DNA from: an uncultured Mycoplasmatota bacterium
GTDB taxonomy: Bacteria; Bacillota_I; Bacilli_A; RF39; UBA660
NCBI GenBank assembly: GCA_947365915.1
Contig: CANAXT010000025.1
Coordinates: 1-20,440, forward strand
Length of the DNA stretch: 20,440 nt
Direction of reading: 5' to 3'
Under the pieces are notes generated by a model. It did not search any database. It saw only the letters and a list, made by a program, of their open reading frames with translations, and was not told where the DNA came from. Of this stretch, positions 4,450 to 20,440 are shown piece after piece. Position numbers and translations under genes: made by a program. Numbering within the stretch: the stretch's first letter is position 1; every line of letters starts with the position of its first letter.

Positions 4450-6357
4450 ATGCAGAAGTACACATTTGAAAACTTAAACCCATATAAAAATACAATTTAT
4501 CAAGAATTTTATCAAAAACTATTTCAAGAACTAGGAATTGGAGGTGATTTGTTAGGATTTCCAGCAAATTGTAAAACTGTATATAGAAAAGCGATTTACA
4601 TGCCACAAAGATTTATGAATGTTCTTACAACACGTTCTATGAAATCATCTAGCAAAAAAATCCAAACAGCGCATTCTTATAAAACCAGTGAAAGAATGAT
4701 TGATACAAGATATGAACATATGTGTTTTGCTTATATGTTAGGTGTAGATTTTTTATTAATATTAGAAAAAAACGGATATCAAATAGACGCTAAAACCCAA
4801 ATTGCCTTTCTATTAAAACTATTGTTACACGATAATGGACATGGCCCATTTTCTCATCCATTTGAACAAATGGTAGATGGTTATAAAGGAATGCATGAAG
4901 ACATCGGAAACCGAAACATCTTAGAAGATCCTGAACTATATCAACATTTAGAAAACATTTATCCTGGTTTAGCACACAATATCGTTCACTTTGAAGAAAT
5001 GGACAAGTATGGGTTACAAGAATTAGTAGAAGGAGTCTTTGATTTAGATAGAGCCTCATTTTTAATCATAGATACTTGGTTATCTAATTCAAAATTATAT
5101 CCAGAAAATACAGAAGAACAATTAGAAAAACTGATTGATTCCATCTATCACATTTTTGAGCACATCATTCTAAGAAATGGAAAAGTATACTATCATCCAG
5201 CATGTTTCTATGATGTTGAATTCTTTTTAAAAAAGCGTGCTTATAATTATATACATATTTATAATGGATTAGAGCGATTGCTAGATGATATGTTATTACA
5301 TCAATATGGGGTATATTTATTACAAAAGCAAAATACTAAGGCCTTTTTAAGACCATTATTAGAGCCAGTCGGAGAGTTTCAAAGTTTTTTAAAAGAGATT
5401 AAAGAAAAGCAAGCAATGATCGATTTAGAACAATACTTTCATTATAGTGATGATGATATGCACCGCATTGTCATGCTTTCTCAATTAATAGAAAATGAAA
5501 ACCTCGAAAAATATGCAAGATTATTTTTGTCTTCTGAATATAGAATGAAAATTCCATTTGATATAGAACAAGTAGATCAAAAAACATGGGAAAAAGAAAC
5601 AAAAGAAAATCCAAATCTAATGTCTGCCAAAACCAAAATCAATATTTATAAAAGTACCGAAAAAGAACACATCATATTTATGGATCCAAAAACAGGAGAA
5701 ACAACAGACTTTAAAGATATGAAAGAGCGAACCCTAAATATTGATCCAATACAAGCTTATTATTTATACCATGAAAGAAAACCCAAACAAATGTTAAAGC
5801 ATGATCAAAGATTAAGACACATATTGGAAGATTATTTTTATAAAAATGCCATACCAATTCTTCGAATCTGTTTAACATGGCAATACGAAAATGAAGAAAA
5901 TTCCATTTTAAATCATTTAATTCCGTTATTAATACATATTGCCAAAAATAAACCATTAGAAGAATATGCAATGACAAAACAAATCACAATGAAACAAGTA
6001 TATACATTATTATCCTTTTATAGTGGAGATGAAAAGTGGGAAAATTATGCAAACTTTTTAAGACTTTCTCCTGAAGATTTAAGCATTTGCTTTATGGAAA
6101 TCAAAGTAGATCATCAAACTTTTATATCAGAATTAGAATGTATTTTAAAAGATAATATACCACTCACAGAAGAAACCCATCCAATAGAAAATTTGATTCA
6201 AATGCTGTGTATTTTCGGGCATGATGAAACAATATTCATAGATCAAGCCATATTAGAATCCAATTACTTTTCAGAAGAAACTAGAAAACAGATAAAAGGC
6301 CAAATTAGGAAATATAAAATAGGAAACAGTGGATATCAAAAAAAATATAAAATCTAA
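4450..6357 (+). CDS. SAMHD1/dGTPase-like HD-domain protein (putative dNTP triphosphohydrolase) with a long uncharacterised C-terminal region
   Basis: Ordered motifs are R-Y-E-H-M (RxxH), LLLHDNGHGPFSHPFE (HD at 4828-4833 plus the GHGPFSH signature), MHEDIG, and FDLDRASFLIID (DxD-R-x-x-[FY]). This order is typical of the dGTPase/SAMHD1 clade. An SD-like GGTGAG lies upstream. Confidence 0.8.
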   Translation: MQKYTFENLNPYKNTIYQEFYQKLFQELGIGGDLLGFPANCKTVYRKAIYMPQRFMNVLTTRSMKSSSKKIQTAHSYKTSERMIDTRYEHMCFAYMLGVDFLLILEKNGYQIDAKTQIAFLLKLLLHDNGHGPFSHPFEQMVDGYKGMHEDIGNRNILEDPELYQHLENIYPGLAHNIVHFEEMDKYGLQELVEGVFDLDRASFLIIDTWLSNSKLYPENTEEQLEKLIDSIYHIFEHIILRNGKVYYHPACFYDVEFFLKKRAYNYIHIYNGLERLLDDMLLHQYGVYLLQKQNTKAFLRPLLEPVGEFQSFLKEIKEKQAMIDLEQYFHYSDDDMHRIVMLSQLIENENLEKYARLFLSSEYRMKIPFDIEQVDQKTWEKETKENPNLMSAKTKINIYKSTEKEHIIFMDPKTGETTDFKDMKERTLNIDPIQAYYLYHERKPKQMLKHDQRLRHILEDYFYKNAIPILRICLTWQYENEENSILNHLIPLLIHIAKNKPLEEYAMTKQITMKQVYTLLSFYSGDEKWENYANFLRLSPEDLSICFMEIKVDHQTFISELECILKDNIPLTEETHPIENLIQMLCIFGHDETIFIDQAILESNYFSEETRKQIKGQIRKYKIGNSGYQKKYKI

Positions 6358-6416
6358 ACTTTTCATGATTCTACAATATACTAAAGGAAAGTAAAACCAA
6401 TGAAAACAAATATGCT

Positions 6417-6444
6417 TTGAAATATGCAAATATTATGATATAAT
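6417..6444 (+). promoter_or_regulatory. Putative sigma-A promoter of the avd-TR-RT unit (TTGAAA-N13-TGaTATAAT)
   Basis: The -35 TTGAAA is at 6417-6422 and the extended -10 TGATATAAT at 6436-6444, giving a 16-nt spacer. Confidence 0.5.
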
Positions 6445-6461
6445 AGCCCCAATTCAAATGA

Positions 6462-7073
6462 ATGAAAGGGAAAGTGATAATAGTGCTCCAAGTAAGTAGA
6501 AATAATAACTTAAAAATACCAAAAAAAATAGAGATTGATCAAGAAAAGATCAATAGCACTAATGACAGACTATTTGTAAAACAAGCGATCAAGACTGCTA
6601 ATGATCAAAAATTTGATATATCAAAAGAAAAAGAGAATATTGAGTTTGACAAAGAATTAAAAAGAGTTGAAAAAATTCCAATGAACTCTAGTGAATTAAT
6701 GGTAATCACCATAGTAAAAAAACTCGGGGCTTATATTATTGCAATCACAGAAAAATCACCAGCAAAATTTCGGGGAGTTTTTGTAAATAGGATGCAAAAT
6801 CTAACATTAGAGGTATTAGAACTATTATTACAAGCCAATTTTGTAAGAATCGATAGTATAGAACGAAAAAAAGAAAGAGAAGAATTTCAAAAAAATGCGA
6901 TTATAAAATTAAAAATGTTAGGATATATCTCCATGGTAGCAGAAAATTCTGGCTGCATATTATCACGACAATTCAAACAAATATCAATTCAAATTGGAGA
7001 AGCAATTAATCTAATCGCTGCTTGGAAAAAAAGTGATGATAATAGATGGAAAAATAGAACAAAATTAGAATAA
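6462..7073 (+). CDS. avd: Avd-like accessory variability determinant (four-helix-bundle protein, 23S rRNA-intervening-sequence protein family) with an N-terminal extension
   Basis: The C-terminal ~130 aa (from M74 at 6681) read SPAKFRGVFVNRMQNLTLEVLELLLQANF...R...AIIKLKMLGYISMVAE...LSRQFKQISIQIGEAINLIAAWKKS. This fits the helical pattern of DGR Avd proteins, and the gene sits directly 5' of the TR and RT. The start is uncertain (ATG 6462, GTG 6474 or ATG 6681). Confidence 0.75.
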   Translation: MKGKVIIVLQVSRNNNLKIPKKIEIDQEKINSTNDRLFVKQAIKTANDQKFDISKEKENIEFDKELKRVEKIPMNSSELMVITIVKKLGAYIIAITEKSPAKFRGVFVNRMQNLTLEVLELLLQANFVRIDSIERKKEREEFQKNAIIKLKMLGYISMVAENSGCILSRQFKQISIQIGEAINLIAAWKKSDDNRWKNRTKLE

Positions 7074-7437
7074 TGGATTTTAAGTCGAAAGGCTTTTAAT
7101 TAAGTAGAACGTTTATAATGTTCCAATCTGCTTGGTGTGTTGGGCCCTCGTGTCCGCGCCGTCTAATGGAATGGAAATAAGAACAACAAATATAGATACG
7201 AACGCAATGGTGTTATTCGCCCAGATTTGCTTTTGAAGAGATTTATAAAATCTAGAAAACAGGTCAGAGAAATATATTTTAAGTAAAATATATCAGAACT
7301 TTAAAGCAAAGGAACGTTCTACTTTTCTAACCGCTATAATAGCGCGGTGGATAAAATAAGAGTGTTCACACCAACAACAATAGGGATTTCTATTTTTGAA
7401 GGTTATATGGGACACTTTTTTAATTTTAGGTGATAGA
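7074..7437 (+). ncRNA. DGR non-coding region (template repeat plus structured flanks/spacer)
   Basis: This is a 364-nt ORF-free gap between avd and the RT. It contains the TR-like segment, a 38-nt adenine-free GC-rich block (7127-7164), several perfect local hairpins and long-range complementary segments (see findings). Confidence 0.6.
7161..7230 (+). repeat. Candidate DGR template repeat (TR) core
   Basis: 27 of the 70 nt are A. Read in the frame of the matching gene segment it has five AAY codons. It aligns without gaps at 54/70 to 8782-8851 and to the three identical paralogous segments. Confidence 0.6.
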
Positions 7438-8457
7438 ATGAATTTAGAAGAAATATTTAGTTTTGAAAATTTATATGTAGCGCATCAAAAATGTAGAAAA
7501 TCAAAGCAACACAAACGAGAAGTAATTAGTTTTGAAACAAATATATCAGAAAATATTTATAAGTTACAAAAAAGTTTAGTATCAAGAAAATATACAGTAG
7601 GAAAATATAAAGAATTTACCATATACGAGCCGAAAGAAAGGCTTATACAAGCTCTTCCATATAAAGATAGAGTAATATTGAGATGCTTTTGTGATATAGT
7701 TTTGATTCCCAAAATAGAAAGTAAATTGATCAATGATAATGTAGCTTGTAGAAAAACAAAAGGAACAGATTACGGAATGAATCGTCTAGCCTTTTTTCTA
7801 AGAAAAGAATACATGAAAAAGAATGACAATAAAATTTATTATTTAAAATGTGATATAAAGAAGTATTTTCCTAGTATAGATCATGAGATACTATTAAAAT
7901 TATTAGAAAAAATCAATTTTTCGAATGATGAAAGATGGTTTATAGAGAAAATAATTAGAGAACAACCAGATAAGGCCAAAAAGGGATTGGCGTTAGGGAA
8001 TCAATCCAGTCAATGGTTCGCTTTATATTATTTAAATAGAATAGATCGATTCATTAAAGAAGAACTAAGAGTAAAATGGTATGTAAGATATATGGATGAT
8101 TTTATACTAATACATAGAGATAAAAAATTTTTACAATATTGTTTGTTAAGAATTGATGAAGTTTGCAAGCAAGAATTGAATATAGAATTAAATAAAAAAA
8201 CACAAATTGGACGAGTGTGTAATGGAATTGATTTTTTAGGATTTAGACATATACTTACAAGTAATGGAAAAATCATAAAAAGGCTTCGTCGCTCTTCGAA
8301 GAAAAGAATGATAAAACATATGAAAACAATATGTAAATTAAAGGAAAAAAGTATAATTGATGAAGAGTATATGAAAATGAGAATAAATGCTTATAAGGCG
8401 CATATTAAATATTCAAATGAGAAAAGATTAAAAGCTGAATTAAAAGAGTGGGAGTAA
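7438..8457 (+). CDS. DGR-class reverse transcriptase
   Basis: - **N-terminus:** ENLYVAHQKCRKSKQHKREV.
- **Early motifs:** YEPKERLIQALPYKDRV and ACRKTKGT.
- **DGR-diagnostic motif:** LALGNQSSQWFALYYLN ([ILV]GxxxSQ) at 7993-8013.
- **Catalytic motif:** YVRYMDDFILI, with YMDD at 8089-8100.
- **Late motif:** GIDFLGFR.
- **Start:** ATG 7438 is preceded by AGGTGA at 7428-7433, so the TTG at 7396 is unlikely to be the start. Confidence 0.9.
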   Translation: MNLEEIFSFENLYVAHQKCRKSKQHKREVISFETNISENIYKLQKSLVSRKYTVGKYKEFTIYEPKERLIQALPYKDRVILRCFCDIVLIPKIESKLINDNVACRKTKGTDYGMNRLAFFLRKEYMKKNDNKIYYLKCDIKKYFPSIDHEILLKLLEKINFSNDERWFIEKIIREQPDKAKKGLALGNQSSQWFALYYLNRIDRFIKEELRVKWYVRYMDDFILIHRDKKFLQYCLLRIDEVCKQELNIELNKKTQIGRVCNGIDFLGFRHILTSNGKIIKRLRRSSKKRMIKHMKTICKLKEKSIIDEEYMKMRINAYKAHIKYSNEKRLKAELKEWE

Positions 8458-8512
8458 ATATATTCAAATTAGAACTAATTCGTCTTAAATAAAATACATT
8501 TATACTATTTTA

Positions 8513-8521
8513 TGATATAAT
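8513..8521 (+). promoter_or_regulatory. Possible extended -10 element (TGaTATAAT) upstream of ATPase copy 1
   Basis: TGATATAAT lies 21 nt upstream of the start codon. The -35 is poor (AATACA). The same -10 region is retained in diverged form upstream of copies 2-4. Confidence 0.4.
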
Positions 8522-8541
8522 ATAAAGCGGTGGTGAGAGTT

Positions 8542-10425
8542 ATGTTTGAACAACAATTAACATTAATGTCTGAAGGACAAATATGGGGAAATGATCAAGA
8601 AGCCCAGTTAGAAGTGATAAAAAAGTATGGATCAAAAGCGGCCATAACAGATCTAGCAATATTAACAGGTGCTTATGTGTGTGAAGATACTACCCGAAAT
8701 ATCAAAGAGGATAATAGTTTATCTGGAAGAGTTGGTTGGCAATGGACTCGATCAGATGATAGATATGGAGATGTCCTCGATGTCTCATGTACTGGAGATA
8801 AGAACATCAAATTTATCTGCTATCGCGCTGGTGTTATTCGTCCAGTTTTACAATCTTCTAACATTTTTTCATTAATTGTACCAAACAGAGTGAGAGGATA
8901 TAACGAGACAGAAGAAGTAGAATATGGAGAATATCCTCAGAATGCAGTAGAAAAAAATATGCAACAGCAATTAGGATCGGAATATATATCTGGAAATCTT
9001 TGCAAAACAGGAAGAAATTATACATTTGATTCTAGAAAGTATGATGATTATAGTAATGGTTTTTTAGGAATTACCTATGATGAATATGAATATGCAGGAA
9101 AAAAGTATATTCGAGTTCAAGCCAATTCTTGCTATGGTGGAAATGAATTTCAATTATCCAATGAAGAAAAATATAAAAATGGAGATTATGTTTGGATTGA
9201 AGTCCAACCAGTTAAATGGTTAATTGATGATAGAACAGGATTACTAATTTCTAAAAAAGGACTGCTATCAGGAATTCGATTTCTTGAGCGGGAGTCTAAA
9301 TATAACGGAGATTTTGATACAACTGAAATGAAAATGTATCTCGATGAACATATGTCAAAAGATTTATTTCAAACAGCATCTTTGAATTTGTCACAAAAAC
9401 CAAAACCTCAAAAAATAAAAAATCCTTATGGATTTGATTTTGGACAAGTGAGTGAAGAAGAAATTATTAAAGGTGCAATAGAAAGTAATGTACCAGTATT
9501 CTTACACGGACCCTCATCAGAGGGAAAAAGTGCTAGAGTCAAGCAAATTGATCCAACATGTGAGATTGTGTATTTGAGAAATGCGACACCAGAAAGTTTA
9601 AATGGAAAAAGTGTCTATAACGCAGAAACAGGAGAAATGATTGACATAGAACCAACATGGTTAAAAAAACTAAGAACCAAATGCGAAACAGAGCCAGATC
9701 GCTTACATATCTTATTTTTTGATGAGATCACAAATGCTTTACCAAGCATTCAAGGAAGTGCTTTTAATATCGTACTAGATAAAGAAGTAAATGGGACTTG
9801 GAAATTACCAGAAAACGCAAGAATTGTAGCTGCAGGAAATGAAATGAAGGATTCTCTAGCAGCGAACAAGTTAGCAGAACCACTATTTAATAGGTTCGCC
9901 CATGTTTATATTAAAACAACAACCGAATCATGGTTAAAATGGGCAAGTGAAAATAACATTCACCCAGCAATATACTGCTATATCGCCTATAAAAACGGAA
10001 CTACATTAAGAAGCAAATATGATGGAGAAAAGCCAAATGCGGATCCAAGAAAATGGGAAATGGCATCAAAAATGTTATATGCTACAAAAAATCCAGAGAT
10101 GTTACGAGCATTAGTCGGAGAAGAAATCACAAAAGAATTTGTAGCATTTTGTAAACAACAAGTAATTACATTAGAAGATGTAATTAATAGAAATTATACA
10201 AAAGAAAGTTTAGAACAATTAAATGTAGCTGAAAAAAGTGCAACCATTATAGGATTATCAGCTGTAGGAATAGAACACCTAGAAGAAGTAAGAGACTTTG
10301 CTTACTTCTTAGGAAAAGAATTTGGAGCCACATTTGATACCTTATGGGCTCATGGAGAAGAAGAAAGATTAGAAATGATTGCTGAACTGAAATTGCAAAA
10401 TAAACAAGGAGGTGTCAAAAAATAA
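8542..10425 (+). CDS. N-terminal putative ligand-binding domain fused to a MoxR/AAA_5-type ATPase (copy 1, putative DGR target)
   Basis: - **Size:** 627 aa.
- **ATPase half:** Walker A GPSSEGKS (9508-9531), Walker B ILFFDE (DE at 9721-9726), sensor-1-like IVAAGNE and EPLFNRF.
- **N-terminal ~290 aa:** GWQWTRSDD...GVIRPVL and WIEVQPVKWLIDD...LLISKK motifs, reminiscent of W-x-L-R-S / G-V-R-P-A-L domains of Firmicutes.
- **Start:** ATG 8542 (MFEQQ) is shared by all four copies and preceded by GGTGGTGAG. Confidence 0.9.
   Translation: MFEQQLTLMSEGQIWGNDQEAQLEVIKKYGSKAAITDLAILTGAYVCEDTTRNIKEDNSLSGRVGWQWTRSDDRYGDVLDVSCTGDKNIKFICYRAGVIRPVLQSSNIFSLIVPNRVRGYNETEEVEYGEYPQNAVEKNMQQQLGSEYISGNLCKTGRNYTFDSRKYDDYSNGFLGITYDEYEYAGKKYIRVQANSCYGGNEFQLSNEEKYKNGDYVWIEVQPVKWLIDDRTGLLISKKGLLSGIRFLERESKYNGDFDTTEMKMYLDEHMSKDLFQTASLNLSQKPKPQKIKNPYGFDFGQVSEEEIIKGAIESNVPVFLHGPSSEGKSARVKQIDPTCEIVYLRNATPESLNGKSVYNAETGEMIDIEPTWLKKLRTKCETEPDRLHILFFDEITNALPSIQGSAFNIVLDKEVNGTWKLPENARIVAAGNEMKDSLAANKLAEPLFNRFAHVYIKTTTESWLKWASENNIHPAIYCYIAYKNGTTLRSKYDGEKPNADPRKWEMASKMLYATKNPEMLRALVGEEITKEFVAFCKQQVITLEDVINRNYTKESLEQLNVAEKSATIIGLSAVGIEHLEEVRDFAYFLGKEFGATFDTLWAHGEEERLEMIAELKLQNKQGGVKK
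8782..8851 (+). repeat. Candidate variable repeat (VR) 1, codons 81-103 of ATPase copy 1
   Basis: It aligns without gaps to TR 7161-7230 at 54/70 identity. 11 of the 16 mismatches lie at TR adenines. Confidence 0.55.
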
Positions 10426-10805: not shown

Positions 10806-12125
10806 ATGAAATATGATATTGAAGCAGTCAAACGAAAAATGTTGATTAAATATCCTTTTTTTGGTAGTGTCACTGCCAATGTAGACTATAAAGAAACAGT
10901 AGAAATAGATACTATGGCAACGGATGGAGAGACAATATATTATAATCGAAAATATGTAGAAACACTAGATCAATCAGAACAGATTTTTGTATTTGCGCAT
11001 GAAGTATGTCATATCGCTTTTAATCATATCATGAAAAGTGATGGAAAAGTTCCAAAAATATGGAATATGGCAACAGATGCAGTAATCAATCAATGGTTAA
11101 AAAAAGACAAATTAACAATGCCTCAGTCTGGAGTAAACATTGAAGATGCAATAAATTATGATGCCGAAGAATTATATGAAAAATTACTAGAAGAACAAGC
11201 AAAGAATCAACAAACGAAAAAGAATACAGAAGATCACCAATCTCAAGAACAACAAACCGAGGAAAAAGAAGAACAAGATGTTGGTCATGATACACATCGT
11301 ATGTGGCCAGAAGCAGTAAAAAAAAGAAAGCAGGAAGAAAAAACAGAAAATTCAGGAGAACAAAAACAAAATGATGAAGAAGAAAATGTAGTACGACAAA
11401 AACAAAAAGAATTAGAAAAATTGGGAGAAAGTGAATCTTTTTCAAAAAATCGTGAACTTAAAAAAAGAAATTTAGAAGAATTAAAGCGAGAAATTATAGA
11501 AAGTTCTCTACAAGCTGGAACAAAAACGAATGGAGAAACAAGAAGCTTAGAAAACATAGGAGCATCAAAACCACTAATTGATTGGAGATACATATTAAGA
11601 GAAACAATAAATTATGAAGTGGATTGGTCGTATAAAAATGCAACAATAGAAGATGGAGTTGTTACTCCATATTTAGAAGAACAACAAGTTCCAAAAACAG
11701 AGATTTTACTAGATACTAGTGAATCAGTCTCAACAGCATTGTTAAAAAACTTTGTAAGAGAATGTAAAAACATAGTGCAATATTCTAAAGTAGAAGTTGG
11801 TTGTTTTGATACAAGATTTTATGGATTTCATGAAATTAGAACAGAAGAAGACATAGAAAAAATGGACTATCAAGGTAGAGGAGGAACAGACTTTAATGTA
11901 GCAGTAGAAGCTTTTTCAAGAAGGGTAGAAAATAAAATTATTTTTACAGATGGACAAGCCCCTATGCCAGAAATGACAATCGATGCAATTTGGATTGTGT
12001 ATGGTGGTAAAAAGATAAAACCACGTGGTGGAAGAGTAATTCATATTACAGATGAACAACTGAAAAAATTACAATTTGGCGAGAAATCAAATGAATTAAA
12101 TGAAAACAAAAATAAACTGAAGTAA
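10806..12125 (+). CDS. DUF2201-type putative zinc metallopeptidase (HExxH) with a C-terminal VWA-like domain
   Basis: - **N-terminal part:** YPFFGSV...MATDGETIYYN...FVFAHEVCHIAFNH (HEVCH at 10998-11012)...WNMATDAVINQWL. This resembles the family I recall as Pfam DUF2201_N.
- **Linker:** E/K/Q-rich low-complexity region.
- **C-terminal part:** LLDTSESVS...GGTDF...IIFTDGQ, a VWA-like, MIDAS-like D-x-S-x-S pattern.
- **Context:** This is a typical partner of MoxR AAA+ ATPases. Confidence 0.85.
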   Translation: MKYDIEAVKRKMLIKYPFFGSVTANVDYKETVEIDTMATDGETIYYNRKYVETLDQSEQIFVFAHEVCHIAFNHIMKSDGKVPKIWNMATDAVINQWLKKDKLTMPQSGVNIEDAINYDAEELYEKLLEEQAKNQQTKKNTEDHQSQEQQTEEKEEQDVGHDTHRMWPEAVKKRKQEEKTENSGEQKQNDEEENVVRQKQKELEKLGESESFSKNRELKKRNLEELKREIIESSLQAGTKTNGETRSLENIGASKPLIDWRYILRETINYEVDWSYKNATIEDGVVTPYLEEQQVPKTEILLDTSESVSTALLKNFVRECKNIVQYSKVEVGCFDTRFYGFHEIRTEEDIEKMDYQGRGGTDFNVAVEAFSRRVENKIIFTDGQAPMPEMTIDAIWIVYGGKKIKPRGGRVIHITDEQLKKLQFGEKSNELNENKNKLK

Positions 12126-12159: not shown

Positions 12160-12177
12160 AATAAGCCGGTGATGATA

Positions 12178-14061
12178 ATGTTTGAACAACAATTAACATT
12201 AATGTCTGAAGGACAAATATGGGGAAATGATCAAGAAGCCCAGTTAGAAGTGATAAAAAAGTATGGATCAAAAGCGGCCATAACAGATCTAGCAATATTA
12301 ACAGGTGCTTATGTGTGTGAAGATACTACCCGAAATATCAAAGAGGATAATAGTTTATCTGGAAGAGTTGGTTGGCAATGGACTCGATCAGATGATAGAT
12401 ATGGAGATGTCCTCGATGTCTCATGTACTGGAGATAAGAACATCAAATTTATCTGCTATCGCGCTGGTGTTATTCGTCCAGTTTTACAATCTTCTAACAT
12501 TTTTTCATTAATTGTACCAAACAGAGTGAGAGGATATAACGAGACAGAAGAAGTAGAATATGGAGAATATCCTCAGAATGCAGTAGAAAAAAATATGCAA
12601 CAGCAATTAGGATCGGAATATATATCTGGAAATCTTTGCAAAACAGGAAGAAATTATACATTTGATTCTAGAAAGTATGATGATTATAGTAATGGTTTTT
12701 TAGGAATTACCTATGATGAATATGAATATGCAGGAAAAAAGTATATTCGAGTTCAAGCCAATTCTTGCTATGGTGGAAATGAATTTCAATTATCCAATGA
12801 AGAAAAATATAAAAATGGAGATTATGTTTGGATTGAAGTCCAACCAGTTAAATGGTTAATTGATGATAGAACAGGATTACTAATTTCTAAAAAAGGACTG
12901 CTATCAGGAATTCGATTTCTTGAGCGGGAGTCTAAATATAACGGAGATTTTGATACAACTGAAATGAAAATGTATCTCGATGAACATATGTCAAAAGATT
13001 TATTTCAAACAGCATCTTTGAATTTGTCACAAAAACCAAAACCTCAAAAAATAAAAAATCCTTATGGATTTGATTTTGGACAAGTGAGTGAAGAAGAAAT
13101 TATTAAAGGTGCAATAGAAAGTAATGTACCAGTATTCTTACACGGACCCTCATCAGAGGGAAAAAGTGCTAGAGTCAAGCAAATTGATCCAACATGTGAG
13201 ATTGTGTATTTGAGAAATGCGACACCAGAAAGTTTAAATGGAAAAAGTGTCTATAACGCAGAAACAGGAGAAATGATTGACATAGAACCAACATGGTTAA
13301 AAAAACTAAGAACCAAATGCGAAACAGAGCCAGATCGCTTACATATCTTATTTTTTGATGAGATCACAAATGCTTTACCAAGCATTCAAGGAAGTGCTTT
13401 TAATATCGTACTAGATAAAGAAGTAAATGGGACTTGGAAATTACCAGAAAACGCAAGAATTGTAGCTGCAGGAAATGAAATGAAGGATTCTCTAGCAGCG
13501 AACAAGTTAGCAGAACCACTATTTAATAGGTTCGCCCATGTTTATATTAAAACAACAACCGAATCATGGTTAAAATGGGCAAGTGAAAATAACATTCACC
13601 CAGCAATATACTGCTATATCGCCTATAAAAACGGAACTACATTAAGAAGCAAATATGATGGAGAAAAGCCAAATGCGGATCCAAGAAAATGGGAAATGGC
13701 ATCAAAAATGTTATATGCTACAAAAAATCCAGAGATGTTACGAGCATTAGTCGGAGAAGAAATCACAAAAGAATTTGTAGCATTTTGTAAACAACAAGTA
13801 ATTACATTAGAAGATGTAATTAATAGAAATTATACAAAAGAAAGTTTAGAACAATTAAATGTAGCTGAAAAAAGTGCAACCATTATAGGATTATCAGCTG
13901 TAGGAATAGAACACCTAGAAGAAGTAAGAGACTTCGCTTACTTCTTAGGAAAAGAATTTGGGGCTACATTTGATACATTATGGACTCACAGAGAAGAAGA
14001 ACGATTAGAAATAATTGCAGAACTGAAAGCAAAACAAAAAGAATATAGAATTGCTATATAA
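12178..14061 (+). CDS. Ligand-binding domain / MoxR-type AAA+ ATPase fusion (copy 2)
   Basis: The product is identical to copy 1 at the protein level through residue ~590. It then has a diverged C-terminal tail (TLWTHREEERLEIIAELKAKQKEYRIAI). ATG 12178 is preceded by GGTGA. Confidence 0.9.
   Translation: MFEQQLTLMSEGQIWGNDQEAQLEVIKKYGSKAAITDLAILTGAYVCEDTTRNIKEDNSLSGRVGWQWTRSDDRYGDVLDVSCTGDKNIKFICYRAGVIRPVLQSSNIFSLIVPNRVRGYNETEEVEYGEYPQNAVEKNMQQQLGSEYISGNLCKTGRNYTFDSRKYDDYSNGFLGITYDEYEYAGKKYIRVQANSCYGGNEFQLSNEEKYKNGDYVWIEVQPVKWLIDDRTGLLISKKGLLSGIRFLERESKYNGDFDTTEMKMYLDEHMSKDLFQTASLNLSQKPKPQKIKNPYGFDFGQVSEEEIIKGAIESNVPVFLHGPSSEGKSARVKQIDPTCEIVYLRNATPESLNGKSVYNAETGEMIDIEPTWLKKLRTKCETEPDRLHILFFDEITNALPSIQGSAFNIVLDKEVNGTWKLPENARIVAAGNEMKDSLAANKLAEPLFNRFAHVYIKTTTESWLKWASENNIHPAIYCYIAYKNGTTLRSKYDGEKPNADPRKWEMASKMLYATKNPEMLRALVGEEITKEFVAFCKQQVITLEDVINRNYTKESLEQLNVAEKSATIIGLSAVGIEHLEEVRDFAYFLGKEFGATFDTLWTHREEERLEIIAELKAKQKEYRIAI
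12418..12487 (+). repeat. Candidate VR 2
   Basis: By visual comparison it has the same 70-nt sequence as 8782-8851. Confidence 0.5.
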
Positions 14062-14127: not shown

Positions 14128-14144
14128 AATAGCCGGTGATGATA

Positions 14145-16028
14145 ATGTTTGAACAACAATTAACATTAATGTCTGAAGGACAAATATGGGGAAATGATCA
14201 AGAAGCCCAGTTAGAAGTGATAAAAAAGTATGGATCAAAAGCGGCCATAACAGATCTAGCAATATTAACAGGTGCTTATGTGTGTGAAGATACTACCCGA
14301 AATATCAAAGAGGATAATAGTTTATCTGGAAGAGTTGGTTGGCAATGGACTCGATCAGATGATAGATATGGAGATGTCCTCGATGTCTCATGTACTGGAG
14401 ATAAGAACATCAAATTTATCTGCTATCGCGCTGGTGTTATTCGTCCAGTTTTACAATCTTCTAACATTTTTTCATTAATTGTACCAAACAGAGTGAGAGG
14501 ATATAACGAGACAGAAGAAGTAGAATATGGAGAATATCCTCAGAATGCAGTAGAAAAAAATATGCAACAGCAATTAGGATCGGAATATATATCTGGAAAT
14601 CTTTGCAAAACAGGAAGAAATTATACATTTGATTCTAGAAAGTATGATGATTATAGTAATGGTTTTTTAGGAATTACCTATGATGAATATGAATATGCAG
14701 GAAAAAAGTATATTCGAGTTCAAGCCAATTCTTGCTATGGTGGAAATGAATTTCAATTATCCAATGAAGAAAAATATAAAAATGGAGATTATGTTTGGAT
14801 TGAAGTCCAACCAGTTAAATGGTTAATTGATGATAGAACAGGATTACTAATTTCTAAAAAAGGACTGCTATCAGGAATTCGATTTCTTGAGCGGGAGTCT
14901 AAATATAACGGAGATTTTGATACAACTGAAATGAAAATGTATCTCGATGAACATATGTCAAAAGATTTATTTCAAACAGCATCTTTGAATTTGTCACAAA
15001 AACCAAAACCTCAAAAAATAAAAAATCCTTATGGATTTGATTTTGGACAAGTGAGTGAAGAAGAAATTATTAAAGGTGCAATAGAAAGTAATGTACCAGT
15101 ATTCTTACACGGACCCTCATCAGAGGGAAAAAGTGCTAGAGTCAAGCAAATTGATCCAACATGTGAGATTGTGTATTTGAGAAATGCGACACCAGAAAGT
15201 TTAAATGGAAAAAGTGTCTATAACGCAGAAACAGGAGAAATGATTGACATAGAACCAACATGGTTAAAAAAACTAAGAACCAAATGCGAAACAGAGCCAG
15301 ATCGCTTACATATCTTATTTTTTGATGAGATCACAAATGCTTTACCAAGCATTCAAGGAAGTGCTTTTAATATCGTACTAGATAAAGAAGTAAATGGGAC
15401 TTGGAAATTACCAGAAAACGCAAGAATTGTAGCTGCAGGAAATGAAATGAAGGATTCTCTAGCAGCGAACAAGTTAGCAGAACCACTATTTAATAGGTTC
15501 GCCCATGTTTATATTAAAACAACAACCGAATCATGGTTAAAATGGGCAAGTGAAAATAACATTCACCCAGCAATATACTGCTATATCGCCTATAAAAACG
15601 GAACTACATTAAGAAGCAAATATGATGGAGAAAAGCCAAATGCGGATCCAAGAAAATGGGAAATGGCATCAAAAATGTTATATGCTACAAAAAATCCAGA
15701 GATGTTACGAGCATTAGTCGGAGAAGAAATCACAAAAGAATTTGTAGCATTTTGTAAACAACAAGTAATTACATTAGAAGATGTAATTAATAGAAATTAT
15801 ACAAAAGAAAGTTTAGAACAATTAAATGTAGCTGAAAAAAGTGCAACCATTATAGGATTATCAGCTGTAGGAATAGAACACCTAGAAGAAGTAAGAGACT
15901 TCGCTTACTTCTTAGGAAAAGAATTTGGGGCTACATTTGATACATTATGGACTCACAGAGAAGAAGAACGATTAGAAATAATTGCAGAACTGAAAGCAAA
16001 ACAAAAAGAATATAGAATTGCTATATAA
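14145..16028 (+). CDS. Ligand-binding domain / MoxR-type AAA+ ATPase fusion (copy 3)
   Basis: The protein is identical to copy 2 over all 627 aa. The flanking intergenic sequence is also identical. Confidence 0.9.
   Translation: MFEQQLTLMSEGQIWGNDQEAQLEVIKKYGSKAAITDLAILTGAYVCEDTTRNIKEDNSLSGRVGWQWTRSDDRYGDVLDVSCTGDKNIKFICYRAGVIRPVLQSSNIFSLIVPNRVRGYNETEEVEYGEYPQNAVEKNMQQQLGSEYISGNLCKTGRNYTFDSRKYDDYSNGFLGITYDEYEYAGKKYIRVQANSCYGGNEFQLSNEEKYKNGDYVWIEVQPVKWLIDDRTGLLISKKGLLSGIRFLERESKYNGDFDTTEMKMYLDEHMSKDLFQTASLNLSQKPKPQKIKNPYGFDFGQVSEEEIIKGAIESNVPVFLHGPSSEGKSARVKQIDPTCEIVYLRNATPESLNGKSVYNAETGEMIDIEPTWLKKLRTKCETEPDRLHILFFDEITNALPSIQGSAFNIVLDKEVNGTWKLPENARIVAAGNEMKDSLAANKLAEPLFNRFAHVYIKTTTESWLKWASENNIHPAIYCYIAYKNGTTLRSKYDGEKPNADPRKWEMASKMLYATKNPEMLRALVGEEITKEFVAFCKQQVITLEDVINRNYTKESLEQLNVAEKSATIIGLSAVGIEHLEEVRDFAYFLGKEFGATFDTLWTHREEERLEIIAELKAKQKEYRIAI
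14385..14454 (+). repeat. Candidate VR 3
   Basis: Same 70-nt sequence as 8782-8851. Confidence 0.5.
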
Positions 16029-16094: not shown

Positions 16095-16111
16095 AATAGC
16101 CGGTGATGATA

Positions 16112-17992
16112 ATGTTTGAACAACAATTAACATTAATGTCTGAAGGACAAATATGGGGAAATGATCAAGAAGCCCAGTTAGAAGTGATAAAAAAGTATGG
16201 ATCAAAAGCGGCCATAACAGATCTAGCAATATTAACAGGTGCTTATGTGTGTGAAGATACTACCCGAAATATCAAAGAGGATAATAGTTTATCTGGAAGA
16301 GTTGGTTGGCAATGGACTCGATCAGATGATAGATATGGAGATGTCCTCGATGTCTCATGTACTGGAGATAAGAACATCAAATTTATCTGCTATCGCGCTG
16401 GTGTTATTCGTCCAGTTTTACAATCTTCTAACATTTTTTCATTAATTGTACCAAACAGAGTGAGAGGATATAACGAGACAGAAGAAGTAGAATATGGAGA
16501 ATATCCTCAGAATGCAGTAGAAAAAAATATGCAACAGCAATTAGGATCGGAATATATATCTGGAAATCTTTGCAAAACAGGAAGAAATTATACATTTGAT
16601 TCTAGAAAGTATGATGATTATAGTAATGGTTTTTTAGGAATTACCTATGATGAATATGAATATGCAGGAAAAAAGTATATTCGAGTTCAAGCCAATTCTT
16701 GCTATGGTGGAAATGAATTTCAATTATCCAATGAAGAAAAATATAAAAATGGAGATTATGTTTGGATTGAAGTCCAACCAGTTAAATGGTTAATTGATGA
16801 TAGAACAGGATTACTAATTTCTAAAAAAGGACTGCTATCAGGAATTCGATTTCTTGAGCGGGAGTCTAAATATAACGGAGATTTTGATACAACTGAAATG
16901 AAAATGTATCTCGATGAACATATGTCAAAAGATTTATTTCAAACAGCATCTTTGAATTTGTCACAAAAACCAAAACCTCAAAAAATAAAAAATCCTTATG
17001 GATTTGATTTTGGACAAGTGAGTGAAGAAGAAATTATTAAAGGTGCAATAGAAAGTAATGTACCAGTATTCTTACACGGACCCTCATCAGAGGGAAAAAG
17101 TGCTAGAGTCAAGCAAATTGATCCAACATGTGAGATTGTGTATTTGAGAAATGCGACACCAGAAAGTTTAAATGGAAAAAGTGTCTATAACGCAGAAACA
17201 GGAGAAATGATTGACATAGAACCAACATGGTTAAAAAAACTAAGAACCAAATGCGAAACAGAGCCAGATCGCTTACATATCTTATTTTTTGATGAGATCA
17301 CAAATGCTTTACCAAGCATTCAAGGAAGTGCTTTTAATATCGTACTAGATAAAGAAGTAAATGGGACTTGGAAATTACCAGAAAACGCAAGAATTGTAGC
17401 TGCAGGAAATGAAATGAAGGATTCTCTAGCAGCGAACAAGTTAGCAGAACCACTATTTAATAGGTTCGCCCATGTTTATATTAAAACAACAACCGAATCA
17501 TGGTTAAAATGGGCAAGTGAAAATAACATTCACCCAGCAATATACTGCTATATCGCCTATAAAAACGGAACTACATTAAGAAGCAAATATGATGGAGAAA
17601 AGCCAAATGCGGATCCAAGAAAATGGGAAATGGCATCAAAAATGTTATATGCTACAAAAAATCCAGAGATGTTACGAGCATTAGTCGGAGAAGAAATCAC
17701 AAAAGAATTTGTAGCATTTTGTAAACAACAAGTAATTACATTAGAAGATGTAATTAATAGAAATTATACAAAAGAAAGTTTAGAACAATTAAATGTAGCT
17801 GAAAAAAGTGCAACCATTATAGGATTATCAGCTGTAGGAATAGAACACCTAGAAGAAGTAAGAGACTTTGCTTACTTCTTAGGAAAAGAATTTGGAGCCA
17901 CATTTGATACATTATGGACTCACGGAGAAGAAGAACGATTAGAAATAATTGCAGAATTGAAGGCAAAACAAAAAGTGAAAATAAAAAATTAG
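16112..17992 (+). CDS. Ligand-binding domain / MoxR-type AAA+ ATPase fusion (copy 4)
   Basis: The 626-aa product is identical to the other copies except for the last ~30 residues (TLWTHGEEERLEIIAELKAKQKVKIKN). Confidence 0.9.
   Translation: MFEQQLTLMSEGQIWGNDQEAQLEVIKKYGSKAAITDLAILTGAYVCEDTTRNIKEDNSLSGRVGWQWTRSDDRYGDVLDVSCTGDKNIKFICYRAGVIRPVLQSSNIFSLIVPNRVRGYNETEEVEYGEYPQNAVEKNMQQQLGSEYISGNLCKTGRNYTFDSRKYDDYSNGFLGITYDEYEYAGKKYIRVQANSCYGGNEFQLSNEEKYKNGDYVWIEVQPVKWLIDDRTGLLISKKGLLSGIRFLERESKYNGDFDTTEMKMYLDEHMSKDLFQTASLNLSQKPKPQKIKNPYGFDFGQVSEEEIIKGAIESNVPVFLHGPSSEGKSARVKQIDPTCEIVYLRNATPESLNGKSVYNAETGEMIDIEPTWLKKLRTKCETEPDRLHILFFDEITNALPSIQGSAFNIVLDKEVNGTWKLPENARIVAAGNEMKDSLAANKLAEPLFNRFAHVYIKTTTESWLKWASENNIHPAIYCYIAYKNGTTLRSKYDGEKPNADPRKWEMASKMLYATKNPEMLRALVGEEITKEFVAFCKQQVITLEDVINRNYTKESLEQLNVAEKSATIIGLSAVGIEHLEEVRDFAYFLGKEFGATFDTLWTHGEEERLEIIAELKAKQKVKIKN
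16352..16421 (+). repeat. Candidate VR 4
   Basis: Same 70-nt sequence as 8782-8851. Confidence 0.5.
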
Positions 17993-18124: not shown

Positions 18125-19066
18125 ATGGAAAAAAATGAAATGGATAGTTTATCTATTTACTTAAGAGATATAAAGGCATGCGGACCACTATTAACCAAAG
18201 GGCAAGAACAAGAACTTACAATAAAAGCAAGTCTTGGTGATGCAAATGCCAAACAAATTTTATTAGAACATAATTTACCACTCGTTGTTAGTAGAGCAAA
18301 AAGATATGCTGTTCATGGGATACCAATAGAAGATCTCATTCAAGAGGGGAATATAGGATTATTAAAAGCAATAGAAAGCTTTAACCCAGAAGTAGGAACA
18401 AGGCTTTCAACTTATGCAGTACCCAAAATAGATCGGCAAATACAAATGGCGTATGAAACATCTTCTAGAATTATCAAAGTTTCTGCTGAAACATATAAAA
18501 TGATTCAAAAACTAAAAACAATGGAAACCATGTTATCAGGAAGATTATATCGAAATCCTAACTTACAAGAACTAGCATATTCATTAAAAATAACAGAAGA
18601 AGAATGTGACTTCTTGATGCAAATAAAACAAGACGCTATGAGCTTACATGCACCAAAATCACAAAACGAAAAAGAAGAAGAATACCTAATTGAACCAAGT
18701 ACTGGATATTTAGAAGAAGGCCTACTAGAGCAATTCATGAAAGATGAAATAATAAACTTACTTTCAATATTAAAAGAAAGAGAACAAGAAATCGCAGTTA
18801 TGCTGTTTGGGCTAGGAGAAACTAGACCAAGAGACGGCGCTGAAATTGGAAGACAATACAATATAACAAGAAGAAGAGTGCATCAAATAAAAGCAACAAT
18901 TATCAAAAAATTGAGACAAGCACCAGGAATAGACGCAATGAGTGTATACATGGATAATCCAGAAGAAGCAATGAAAAATCTAGAATACTATAGAGAATAC
19001 TATAGAACTTCAACGAAAAGATATACAATACCAATGGAACGACCAAAAGAATATATCAAAAAATAA
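18125..19066 (+). CDS. Sigma-70 family RNA polymerase sigma factor (group 3-like) with a C-terminal extension
   Basis: Region 1.2/2 reads YLRDIKACGPLLTKGQEQEL...LPLVVSRAKRY...IEDLIQEGNIGLLKAIESFNPEVGTRLSTYAVPKI. Region 4 reads REQEIAVMLFGL...GAEIGRQYNITRRRVHQIKATIIKKLR. About 45 further residues follow region 4. Confidence 0.85.
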   Translation: MEKNEMDSLSIYLRDIKACGPLLTKGQEQELTIKASLGDANAKQILLEHNLPLVVSRAKRYAVHGIPIEDLIQEGNIGLLKAIESFNPEVGTRLSTYAVPKIDRQIQMAYETSSRIIKVSAETYKMIQKLKTMETMLSGRLYRNPNLQELAYSLKITEEECDFLMQIKQDAMSLHAPKSQNEKEEEYLIEPSTGYLEEGLLEQFMKDEIINLLSILKEREQEIAVMLFGLGETRPRDGAEIGRQYNITRRRVHQIKATIIKKLRQAPGIDAMSVYMDNPEEAMKNLEYYREYYRTSTKRYTIPMERPKEYIKK

Positions 19067-19081
19067 AAAGGGGAAGAACTT

Positions 19082-20440
19082 ATGAATGAAAAACAGGATA
19101 CTATATTTGATCAATTATACGAACAACATTTTTTCTTAACTTCTTCTAAAGAAGTCTTTTTTGAAACTTTAGAACAAGAAATTAAAACAAACATTCGTAT
19201 ATATCAAGGAAGCAATGGACAATATAAAAAGCGATTAGATAGATCTATTCCTAGAATATATCAAAAACAAAGAAAACAGCAAGAAAGAACCATTGAAGCA
19301 ATGAAAATATGTGTAGAAAACTTTGACACATTTGAAGAATTTATTCAATTTTATAATCAAGGAAAATATCCAGTGAATGTGACAATTTGTGCTGAAATAA
19401 TAGAATCTAGTGAATGGCTACGAACAACATTAGAAACTATTATAGATCAAAACCAAGAAAAAATAGAATGTGGTGACTTTGAAGCAATTAGCTATTCAGA
19501 AGTATACATTACATTTCTAATTGCTTACTGTGAACTATATGAAATTGAATATACAAGTCCAAAAGAAGAAAAAAACAGGACAAGCTTAGAAGCATATTTA
19601 TCTGATATGGATCACTTAAGCTTAACGGAAGAAGATGATGAATTACTTTTAAAAAAAGCCCAAAACGGAAACCAAAAAGCAAAAAATGAATTTCTAGAAA
19701 AACACTTGAAACTTCCACTTTTTCTAGCCAGAGAATATCAATATGGAATTACTCCCTTAGAAGACCGAATTCAAGAAGCAAACATAGGACTAATAAATGC
19801 AAGCGAATATTATGACCCAAAAAAAGAAACAACCTTTTCCTATTATGCATCATTCTGCATCAAAAGAAGTATAAAAAGATATCTAAGAAAAAATGAATAC
19901 TTGGGACAACTCTCAGAAACACAATATTTAATGTATTTAAAATATAGGAGATTAAAAGAAAAATGGGAAGACAGAGAACCTGTATCATTAGAAGTGATTG
20001 CCAAAGAACTGAATTTATCATTAGACGAAATAAAACTCTTTCAATATTTTGAACAAAATTCAGTCTATTTAGAAGAAACCGACGTAGATGATACACAAAT
20101 AGATAACTGTATCAAACAAATGGACTTTGAAAGCAACTTATACCCATTATTTGAACGAGCTCATTTATCACAAATACAGATTCAAACATTAGAACAATAC
20201 TTTGGATTGAAAAATGGACAACCAATCCCTTCACAATCAAAAATAGCAAGAATATGGGGAGTAAAACCACAAGCAATTCAAGAAAGACTGGAAAGATCAA
20301 TGTCACTTCTTAGAAACACAAGACACATAAAAGATTGGGCTGATTATATGGAAGATCCAAAAGAAGCCTTACATAATCTAGAAAAATTCCAAAAAAAATA
20401 TGTAAAAAAAATAGATAGGGGGGAATCAATATGGAAGTAA
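19082..20440 (+). CDS. Sigma-70 family sigma factor paralog with a ~190-aa N-terminal extension and the same C-terminal tail
   Basis: Region 2 reads LKLPLFLAREYQYGITPLEDRIQEANIGLINASEYYDPKKETTFSYYASFCIKRSI. Region 4 reads LSQIQIQTLEQYFGL...QSKIARIWGVKPQAIQERLERSMSLLR. The stop codon TAA occupies the last three bases of the window. Confidence 0.8.
   Translation: MNEKQDTIFDQLYEQHFFLTSSKEVFFETLEQEIKTNIRIYQGSNGQYKKRLDRSIPRIYQKQRKQQERTIEAMKICVENFDTFEEFIQFYNQGKYPVNVTICAEIIESSEWLRTTLETIIDQNQEKIECGDFEAISYSEVYITFLIAYCELYEIEYTSPKEEKNRTSLEAYLSDMDHLSLTEEDDELLLKKAQNGNQKAKNEFLEKHLKLPLFLAREYQYGITPLEDRIQEANIGLINASEYYDPKKETTFSYYASFCIKRSIKRYLRKNEYLGQLSETQYLMYLKYRRLKEKWEDREPVSLEVIAKELNLSLDEIKLFQYFEQNSVYLEETDVDDTQIDNCIKQMDFESNLYPLFERAHLSQIQIQTLEQYFGLKNGQPIPSQSKIARIWGVKPQAIQERLERSMSLLRNTRHIKDWADYMEDPKEALHNLEKFQKKYVKKIDRGESIWK

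Follow-up and report, generated by a model that had tools for sequence, protein, structure and literature searches.

An intact-looking diversity-generating retroelement beside four AAA+ ATPase genes whose identical N-terminal variable repeats are probably no longer rewritten

Introduction

The variable repeats (VRs) of diversity-generating retroelements (DGRs) are almost always found at the C-terminus of the target protein, an arrangement supposed to leave the cis elements in intergenic DNA (Roux 2021, PMC8144416). N-terminal VRs have been reported in three cases, in the survey of Wu 2018 (PMC5758913). DGR-diversified sensors tied to MoxR ATPases and von Willebrand factor A (vWA) proteins, and to STAND NTPases, have been described (Kaur 2020, PMC7159879; Dore 2024, PMC10907252), and a passage of PMC10907252 also cites C-type lectin (CLec)-AAA ATPase targets of DGRs in candidate phyla radiation (CPR) bacteria. 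Here we describe a DGR in a 20,440-nt stretch of DNA, hereafter the window, from an uncultured Mycoplasmatota bacterium (GTDB lineage Bacilli_A; RF39; UBA660; assembly GCA_947365915.1, contig CANAXT010000025.1, positions 1 to 20,440 of the forward strand). It stands next to four genes for AAA+ ATPases, each of which carries the matching VR near its N-terminus.

An initial annotation of the window had proposed that an intergenic template repeat (TR) matches a segment in the N-terminal domain of these ATPases with mismatches biased towards adenines. The core of that reading, a DGR TR with its cognate VR near the N-terminus of an AAA+ ATPase, is supported by the gene cassette, by 11 related loci, by hypervariability confined to the VR and by derived bases that TR and VR share. 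In our view, the locus is probably a DGR that looks intact but has stopped rewriting the four identical VRs beside it. The position of the VR had also been called unusual; surveys do place VRs near-universally at the C-terminus, but N-terminal VRs and AAA-ATPase-linked targets both have the precedents cited above, so that the arrangement is less unusual than was claimed.

Results

All genes and elements of the system lie on the + strand, in the order Avd-like gene, TR, 207-nt spacer, reverse transcriptase (RT), first target gene (g1), 123-aa gene, zincin-VWA gene and three more target copies (Table 1). The TR lies on the RT strand, 208 nt upstream of the start of the RT, and a homologous VR lies inside a coding gene. 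We searched the whole window by ungapped BLASTN with the intergenic segment 7074-7440 as query. TR positions 7151-7228 aligned to 8772-8849, 12408-12485, 14375-14452 and 16342-16419, each with 60 of 78 positions identical and E 2e-14; beyond these four equal matches, nothing in the window scored better than E = 0.006. The alignment of 7161-7230 to 8782-8851 on which the initial annotation was built was reproduced in every count: 54 of 70 positions match, and 11 of the 16 mismatches fall on TR adenines, which make up 27 of the 70, the others being three G>T, one C>T and one G>A. The initial annotation was also right in treating the four target segments as identical, and its translations were borne out, with the TR reading VRAV*WNGNKNNKYRYERNGVIRPDL, the gene reading VLDVSCTGDKNIKFICYRAGVIRPVL and four of the five AAY codons altered. 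Its start of the TR at 7127 has to be moved, as 7127-7150 is without homology to the gene and homology begins at 7151. This 5' extension of the alignment adds three non-adenine mismatches (7156, 7159 and 7160), which brings the tally over 78 nt to 18, namely 11 at TR adenines (61%) and 7 elsewhere.

The adenine bias is significant in each test that we applied. The hypergeometric P is 0.006 over the 70-nt span and 0.009 over the 78-nt span, a 200,000-fold permutation test gives P = 0.0087, and the binomial P for 11 mismatches at 27 adenine sites, with the non-adenine rate of 7/51 as background, is 0.0005. None of the 19 TR thymines is mismatched. The bias is nevertheless not exclusive, whereas in a DGR the mismatches are expected to be essentially confined to TR adenines. 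The pair had been described as showing the classic DGR signature; the DGR reading is supported by the cassette and by the relatives described below, but the 7 of 18 mismatches that do not fall on adenines make the window pair itself less than classic.

Some of the differences near the 3' end had been tentatively attributed to an initiation-of-mutagenic-homing (IMH) versus IMH* boundary. This idea holds for A 7225 and for the G>A at 7229, which match TR/VR boundary differences in working-looking relatives, but not for the C>T at 7220, which is seen in no such relative. The last TR adenine, 7225 (codon GAT), corresponds to VR position 8846, where all related VRs have GCT and the window has GTT; GAT or GGT never occurs there. 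The 7225/8846 difference may mark the 3' boundary as a fixed feature of IMH/IMH* type; alternatively, Ala or Val may be under strong selection at this place in the RPAL motif.

The genes and the RNA around the TR are those of a DGR cassette. The I/LGxxxSQ motif is a hallmark of DGR reverse transcriptases (Doulatov 2004; Wu 2018), and the window RT carries it in motif 4 together with a YxDD motif. It aligns end to end and without frameshifts, at 57-75% identity, to its counterparts in the DGR-bearing relatives. Among the NCBIfam models, none specific to DGR RTs matched it, and PADLOC returned generic RT models only, with nothing for the ATPase, the small protein, the DUF2201 protein, Avd or the HD protein. 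The Avd-like protein has sub-threshold matches to bAvd of Pfam (E 0.0017, 19.2 bits against a cut-off of 40) and to DivGenRetAVD of NCBIfam (E 1.8e-4, 21.7 bits against a cut-off of 80), and a homologue with 52-76% identity occupies the same place upstream of the TR in 11/11 DGR-bearing relatives. Its N-terminal extension (window 6462-6700) precedes the four-helix Avd region and is kept in relatives, with 193-195 aa aligned.

The segment between TR and RT is a four-helix RNA with equivalents in L007, L013, L015, L020, L024, L037, L043, L054, L067, L073 and L001 (L numbers denote related loci). Across 12 loci the spacer has a mean column identity of 64%, compensatory changes occur at 19 of its 46 predicted pairs, and the window preserves every helix. 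The 3' end of the TR, CCAGATTTGCTTTTGAAGAG, is conserved in all TRs, those of the window and of the relatives alike. In the RNAalifold consensus of the same 12 loci, two pairs of the helix between TR and spacer change in a compensatory way, UA to CG in four sequences and GC to AU in three. No Rfam family matched in a scan of 6300-8700; the spacer could seed a DGR-RNA covariance model for this clade. Judging from the full-length RT and the preserved spacer helices, the machinery looks intact.

A scan of one genome per species returned 183 relatives, nearly all of them metagenome-assembled genomes (MAGs) of uncultured gut Bacilli labelled Tenericutes, Clostridium sp. CAG:417 or Coprobacillus sp. 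CAG:605, and 77 loci were fetched and examined. Avd, TR and RT lie directly upstream of the ATPase, as in the window, in 11 of these 77 species-level loci, and RT fragments are present in five further ones (L008, L014, L023, L040 and L052). In six of the 11, every TR/VR mismatch falls on a TR adenine (L007 and L015, 12/12 each; L013 and L016, 10/10 each; L024 and L073, 14/14 each). The remaining five have 1-7 mismatches off TR adenines, with L037 and L054 at 11/12 on adenines; among the relatives, L020 has 2 non-adenine mismatches of 11 and L043 has 2 of 9.

A protein search found more than 119 homologues of the target at about 70% identity, all of 640-650 aa. In an alignment of about 119 of them, column entropy is near zero except at residues 84-100, which is the proposed VR. 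Pairs of strains make the same point: 0 of 617 residues differ outside the VR and 8-11 of 24 differ inside it (proteins P0035 versus P0072 and P0012 versus P0035). Over 37 distinct VRs, sites where the TR has an adenine show an entropy of 1.42 bits, against 0.48 at the other sites (P = 4e-10). This is a genuine, currently active DGR target family, to which the element of the window belongs. The hypervariability is found in the relatives and not in the window, where the four VR copies are the same. The sequence cluster of the window holds its own four genes only, the exact window ATPase protein is absent from the contig index, JGI metagenomes gave no match when scanned for exact words from the VR flank and, separately, from the TR, and the collections searched hold no other assembly of the window lineage.

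How does the window pair relate to the family? Its TR differs from the closest family TR, that of L013/L024, at 9 of 80 positions (hand count). Family AAT AAG is TAA TGG in the window TR and TCA TGT in the window VR; family GGT is GGA, AGG is AAG and GTT is ATT in the TR and VR of the window alike. Because these lineage-specific derived bases are common to TR and VR, TR information reached the window VR after the split from the relatives, and the two are, to judge from the bases they share, each other's cognates.

The pair is degraded all the same. The seven mismatched positions of 51 non-adenine positions compare with zero in the six relatives with adenine-only mismatches. When the family TR serves as outgroup, five of the seven prove to have arisen in the VR (7156 G>T, 7159 C>A, 7169 G>T, 7195 G>T and 7220 C>T). 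Each of these goes from GC to AT, in a genome of 31% GC, as expected of ordinary mutation pressure once a segment has ceased to be overwritten. The mismatch at 7200 is best explained as an A-to-G change in the TR after homing, and one mismatch is ambiguous as to side. In the 5' homology anchor, three VR-side changes turn the near-invariant DVRAV into DVLDV. The GC-rich 3' anchor has one, CGTCCAG against CGCCCAG in the TR, where every relative with a full cassette has a perfect match.

The cis elements past the VR tell a similar story. In the relatives, an inverted repeat, TCCCC-N11-GGGGA, lies about 28 nt past the VR, inside the codons for ISPNRVRG. Its stem has 4-5 of 5 Watson-Crick pairs in 17/17 loci, 11 of them DGR-bearing and 6 with RT remnants, and it varies by compensation, as TCCCT/AGGGA in L043 and TCCTC/GAGGA in L054 and L067, with an 8-bp version in L073. 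In loci without a nearby DGR, the stem has 0-5 pairs, with 18 of 48 at three or fewer (Fisher P = 0.0017, uncorrected for phylogeny). A GC-rich 3' anchor together with a downstream hairpin is found in the relatives, while in the window the anchor is mismatched and a degenerate remnant stands in place of the hairpin (Table 1). In BPP-1, a hairpin or cruciform just past the VR is needed for efficient retrohoming, and it is the structure of the stem that counts, not its sequence (PMC3240598). By analogy, the window targets would have lost a recognition element, and the lost hairpin together with the anchor mismatches would prevent homing.

The L001 lineage (L001-L004, P0026), common in the human gut, is a clear natural parallel, with a dead DGR and a frozen VR. 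Its RT is truncated to about 226 aa, its TR/VR pair has 12 adenine and 7 non-adenine mismatches, and its TR reads TCT TAA where active relatives read AAT AAG. The target protein with the VR NKHGDRDDLFRYLRYG is unchanged in 142 index blocks of the collection.

Table 1. Features of the DGR, its targets and their partner genes in the window
Feature	Position	Strand	Remarks
Avd-like accessory gene, 203 aa	6462..7073	+	weak sub-threshold matches; N-terminal extension of ~80 aa
Template repeat (TR)	7151..7230	+	27 adenines; five AAY codons in the target frame; in-frame TAA at 7164-7166
TR-spacer helix	7226..7310	+	TR 3' end TTTGCTTT (7226-7233) predicted to pair with AAAGCAAA (7303-7310)
Structured spacer (Sp) of the DGR RNA	7231..7437	+	predicted hairpins 7272-7280/7285-7293, 7326-7334/7344-7351, 7361-7367/7410-7416
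DGR-type reverse transcriptase, 339 aa, full length	7438..8457	+	RVT_1 E 9e-15; LGNQSSQ and YMDD
Target gene g1, 627 aa	8542..10425	+	N-terminal DUF6273-like module of ~280 aa, then MoxR/AAA_5-like ATPase
VR copy 1, in g1	8772..8851	+	codons 78-104 from the ATG at 8542
Degenerate hairpin remnant	8878..8898	+	GTACC-N11-GAGGA, 1/5 pairs; same after all four VR copies
Small partner gene, 123 aa	10425..10796	+	follows the ATPase in most related loci, not in the most distant
Zincin metallopeptidase and VWA-like partner (DUF2201_N + DUF2201)	10806..12125	+	Pfam E 2e-32 and 1.7e-13; HEVCH (HExxH)
VR copy 2, in g2 (12169-14061)	12408..12487	+	identical to copy 1
VR copy 3, in g3 (14136-16028)	14375..14454	+	identical to copy 1
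VR copy 4, in g4 (16103-17992)	16342..16421	+	identical to copy 1

The domain that carries the VR extends over residues 1-297 and recurs as a unit in 1614 representative clusters, where it stands alone, in tandem, or fused to AAA+, ankyrin, DUF4116 or leucine-rich repeat (LRR) domains. This 280-aa module is a large uncharacterised binding-domain family. An AlphaFold2 (AF2) model of residues 1-297, built with 79 diverse homologues, is a single domain with a predicted local distance difference test score (pLDDT) of 95.3 and a predicted template modelling score (pTM) of 0.91. The model shows the VR as a beta-hairpin of strands 78-81 and 87-90 with a loop (91-101) after it. A Foldseek search of the model against PDB and BFVD gave no neighbour at E <= 0.001, so that a C-type-lectin fold is not shown; the best clue was a phage 'DUF6273 domain-containing protein' at E 0.04. 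The window ATPase protein has no match to Pfam DUF6273 (PF19789; gathering threshold 23.5 bits) at E <= 0.01. The module homologue P0127 reaches 26.3 bits, above the threshold, and in a separate set of module homologues (A3) 6 of 79 have sub-threshold DUF6273 matches. The VR domain is a distant DUF6273-like module. One tandem-module protein that matched DUF6273 across the module junction gave rise to the idea that the module is a circular permutation of DUF6273; among 10 permuted sequences scanned there was one weak match, to the VR-bearing half only, and the idea gained no support.

The C-terminal part of g1 has a Walker A motif, GPSSEGKS, at residue 323, a Walker B motif, ILFFDE, at residue 390, and weak matches to AAA_5 and Sigma54_activat (E 0.006-0.008). 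Hydropathy profiles show no transmembrane segment or signal peptide in the cassette, target or partner proteins, and the target ATPase is predicted to be cytoplasmic. The four ATPase genes are 100% identical over 1757 nt (8542-10298, 12178-13934, 14145-15901 and 16112-17868) and differ only in the first ~12 nt and the last ~130 nt, the latter encoding the C-terminal ~40 aa. This core identity suggests gene conversion, or an effect of assembly. Tandem amplification of the ATPase gene is also seen in relatives (L025/L029, L033, L038 and L066). The order ATPase, small protein, DUF2201 protein is kept in nearly all 77 loci, with the zincin-VWA partner present in nearly all of those whose contig reaches far enough. 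The 123-aa partner has no family match in Pfam, NCBIfam or PADLOC, and profile searches of PDB sequences, made with the module, the full ATPase and the DUF2201 protein, gave nothing meaningful.

Directly upstream of the Avd-like gene, at 4450-6357 on the + strand, lies a gene for a 635-aa protein with an HD-phosphohydrolase signature, HDNGHGPFSHPFE, of dGTPase/SAMHD1-like type and with no Pfam, NCBIfam or PADLOC match at E <= 0.01. We considered and rejected it as the true target of the DGR: it has no TR match, does not resemble the ATPase and is missing from every related locus. Given this absence, it is probably not part of the DGR. In the flanks, a short Phage_GPD-like open reading frame (5-691) overlaps a gene for a DUF3048 protein (640-1437), followed by HD-domain, AraC-type and glyoxalase genes; the right end holds two adjacent sigma-70 family genes (within 18125-20440). 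As no phage structural module is evident in the flanks, the DGR looks chromosomal.

Discussion

Collectively, these data fit a model in which the region is a chromosomal DGR, composed of an Avd-like gene, a TR, a structured spacer RNA and an RT, whose cognate VR lies in a predicted beta-hairpin and loop close to the N-terminus of the neighbouring AAA+ ATPases, the genes for which are tandemly amplified. In the wider family, TR RNA would be reverse-transcribed with random misincorporation opposite adenines, and the cDNA would replace the VR. Some 12 codons would be rewritten each time, in a binding module that is predicted to be cytoplasmic and is joined to a MoxR-like ATPase; this ATPase may operate with the small protein and the zincin-VWA protein, and the target would presumably act as a sensor. 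In this lineage, the TR did write the VR at some past point, after which rewriting of the four adjacent targets would have ceased. The VR would then have gained its GC-to-AT changes, in both anchors among other places, and the downstream hairpin would have been lost, leaving a frozen relic beside machinery that looks intact.

Several observations weigh against this model. Avd, TR, spacer RNA and RT are without lesion, which is unexpected if they had been useless for long enough to let seven substitutions accumulate. A requirement for the hairpin is known from BPP-1 only (PMC3240598), and the geometry here differs from that of BPP-1, as a 5-bp stem with a loop of 11 nt lies some 28 nt past the VR, within conserved coding sequence; we infer a role for the hairpin in this family, and the compensatory changes support it. 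L001 retains the hairpin despite its truncated RT, so that the state of the hairpin and the activity of the DGR are not tightly coupled. The identity of the four copies could stem from very recent gene conversion and not from long inactivity.

If the machinery is indeed in use, its live target might lie elsewhere in the genome, in another ATPase copy or a stand-alone 280-aa module, with the four adjacent genes being former targets that have escaped. Such a target would account for an Avd, a TR, a spacer RNA and an RT that are intact and conserved, which suggests continuing selection. The 280-aa module is widespread enough, alone and in other fusions, to supply one, and DGRs with remote targets have been described (Kaur 2020, PMC7159879). 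However, the cognate VR is in the gene immediately 3' of the RT in every related DGR-bearing locus, the window has no second TR-like match, and the in-frame TAA of the TR would often put stop codons into a live target. We regard a remote target as unlikely. It is less probable still that the DGR continues to diversify the four VRs, with the non-adenine mismatches tolerated or introduced as RT errors and the copies homogenised very recently. The intact machinery and the significant adenine bias are compatible with this, the 1757-nt perfect identity implies a very recent gene conversion that could have erased differences between copies, and the active-looking relatives L020 and L043 also carry non-adenine mismatches. 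But each homing event would reset non-adenine positions to the TR, and yet they differ in the window where six relatives have none that do; both anchors are hit and the hairpin is lost; and the VR-side changes follow the GC-to-AT bias of the genome and do not form an RT signature. That the similarity between TR and gene arose by chance or ordinary paralogy, with no retroelement, is exceedingly improbable, for although the identity is just 77% over 78 nt and the adenine bias (P ~0.009) is modest when taken alone, the match has an E of 2e-14 within the window, the segment sits at the TR place of 11 homologous cassettes with clean TR/VR pairs and shares with them the conserved TR 3' end and spacer RNA, and the gene segment it matches is the only hypervariable region of the family, comparative data that effectively refute this explanation.

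If the picture of the family holds, the 183 species-level matches in gut Bacilli represent a large, previously uncharacterised class of cellular DGR targets, in which an AAA+ ATPase, predicted to be cytoplasmic, has its hypervariable domain at the N-terminus. The 3' anchor and the hairpin would be written into constrained coding sequence and maintained there by compensatory codon changes, which breaks the rule of C-terminal VRs that lets cis elements be intergenic (Roux 2021). DGR-diversified MoxR/vWA sensors would extend beyond multicellular bacteria. The loci would also form a natural series of DGR loss, from active, through intact with frozen targets, to truncated RT and no DGR, and it is mainly as a decayed member of this series that the window itself is useful. 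A more speculative reading, which we offer tentatively as a possibility, is that the ATPase/small protein/zincin-VWA operon might be an intracellular antigen-sensing system of small-genome gut Bacilli, directed against phages or other mobile genetic elements (MGEs). The N-terminal DUF6273-like module might then be a DGR-programmable receptor fused to a MoxR-like motor, an 'anticipatory' immune receptor in unicellular commensals whose diversifier is repeatedly gained, used and lost, with the window at the stage of loss. Our literature search found no paper describing this family; its presence in published DGR tables was left unchecked.

Compared with the canonical DGRs (BPP-1 Mtd, Treponema TvpA and Legionella LdtA; PMC5758913, PMC8144416), the locus is alike in its Avd-like gene, in a TR upstream of the RT and in an I/LGxxxSQ RT. 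It is alike, too, in an AAY-rich TR with adenine-specific TR-to-VR mismatches, which are clean in the relatives, in a TR 3' end paired to spacer RNA and, as far as the relatives go, in a GC-rich 3' anchor and a hairpin past the VR. The predicted helix between TR and spacer in the window would be analogous to the TR-Sp pairing of BPP-1, which is needed for priming and positions the priming adenosine (PMC6182149). The differences are that the TR/VR pair of the window is degraded and that the VR is C-terminal in the canonical systems, whereas here it occupies codons 78-104 of a 627-aa protein. Because the VR is N-terminal, the 3' anchor and the hairpin must lie inside conserved coding sequence (RPAL..ISPNRVRG).

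The variable domain itself is closest to the tentaclins, DUF6273 DGR targets of gut phages (PMC10743442, PMC11792537), in which the VR is a beta-hairpin with flanking loops, similar to that in our AF2 model. Tentaclins are phage tail or receptor-binding proteins with immunoglobulin (Ig)-like domains, however, whereas the module here is fused to a predicted cytoplasmic AAA+ ATPase on a bacterial chromosome; moreover, the window protein falls below the Pfam DUF6273 threshold and its model is without a significant PDB or BFVD neighbour.

In genomic company, the locus resembles the MoxR/vWA 'ternary conflict systems' and the STAND sensors, with which it shares a hypervariable binding domain coupled to a MoxR-like AAA+ ATPase, a vWA protein and a peptidase, as well as a predicted cytoplasmic location and duplicated target genes. 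There, the variable CLec domain lies at the C-terminus, usually that of the vWA or STAND protein, MoxR is encoded separately, and the hosts are multicellular cyanobacteria or proteobacteria; here it is N-terminal on the ATPase, and the hosts are small-genome unicellular gut Bacilli. MoxR-vWA systems of the VMAP type differ further, in that the locus here has a zincin-VWA (DUF2201) protein as partner; we identified no VMAP protein, and the 123-aa protein has no recognisable VMAP or other domain. What is new, then, is an architecture in which the MoxR-like ATPase itself bears the variable module, at its N-terminus, and has a zincin-VWA partner, together with hosts that are gut Bacilli with small genomes and cis elements kept within coding sequence.

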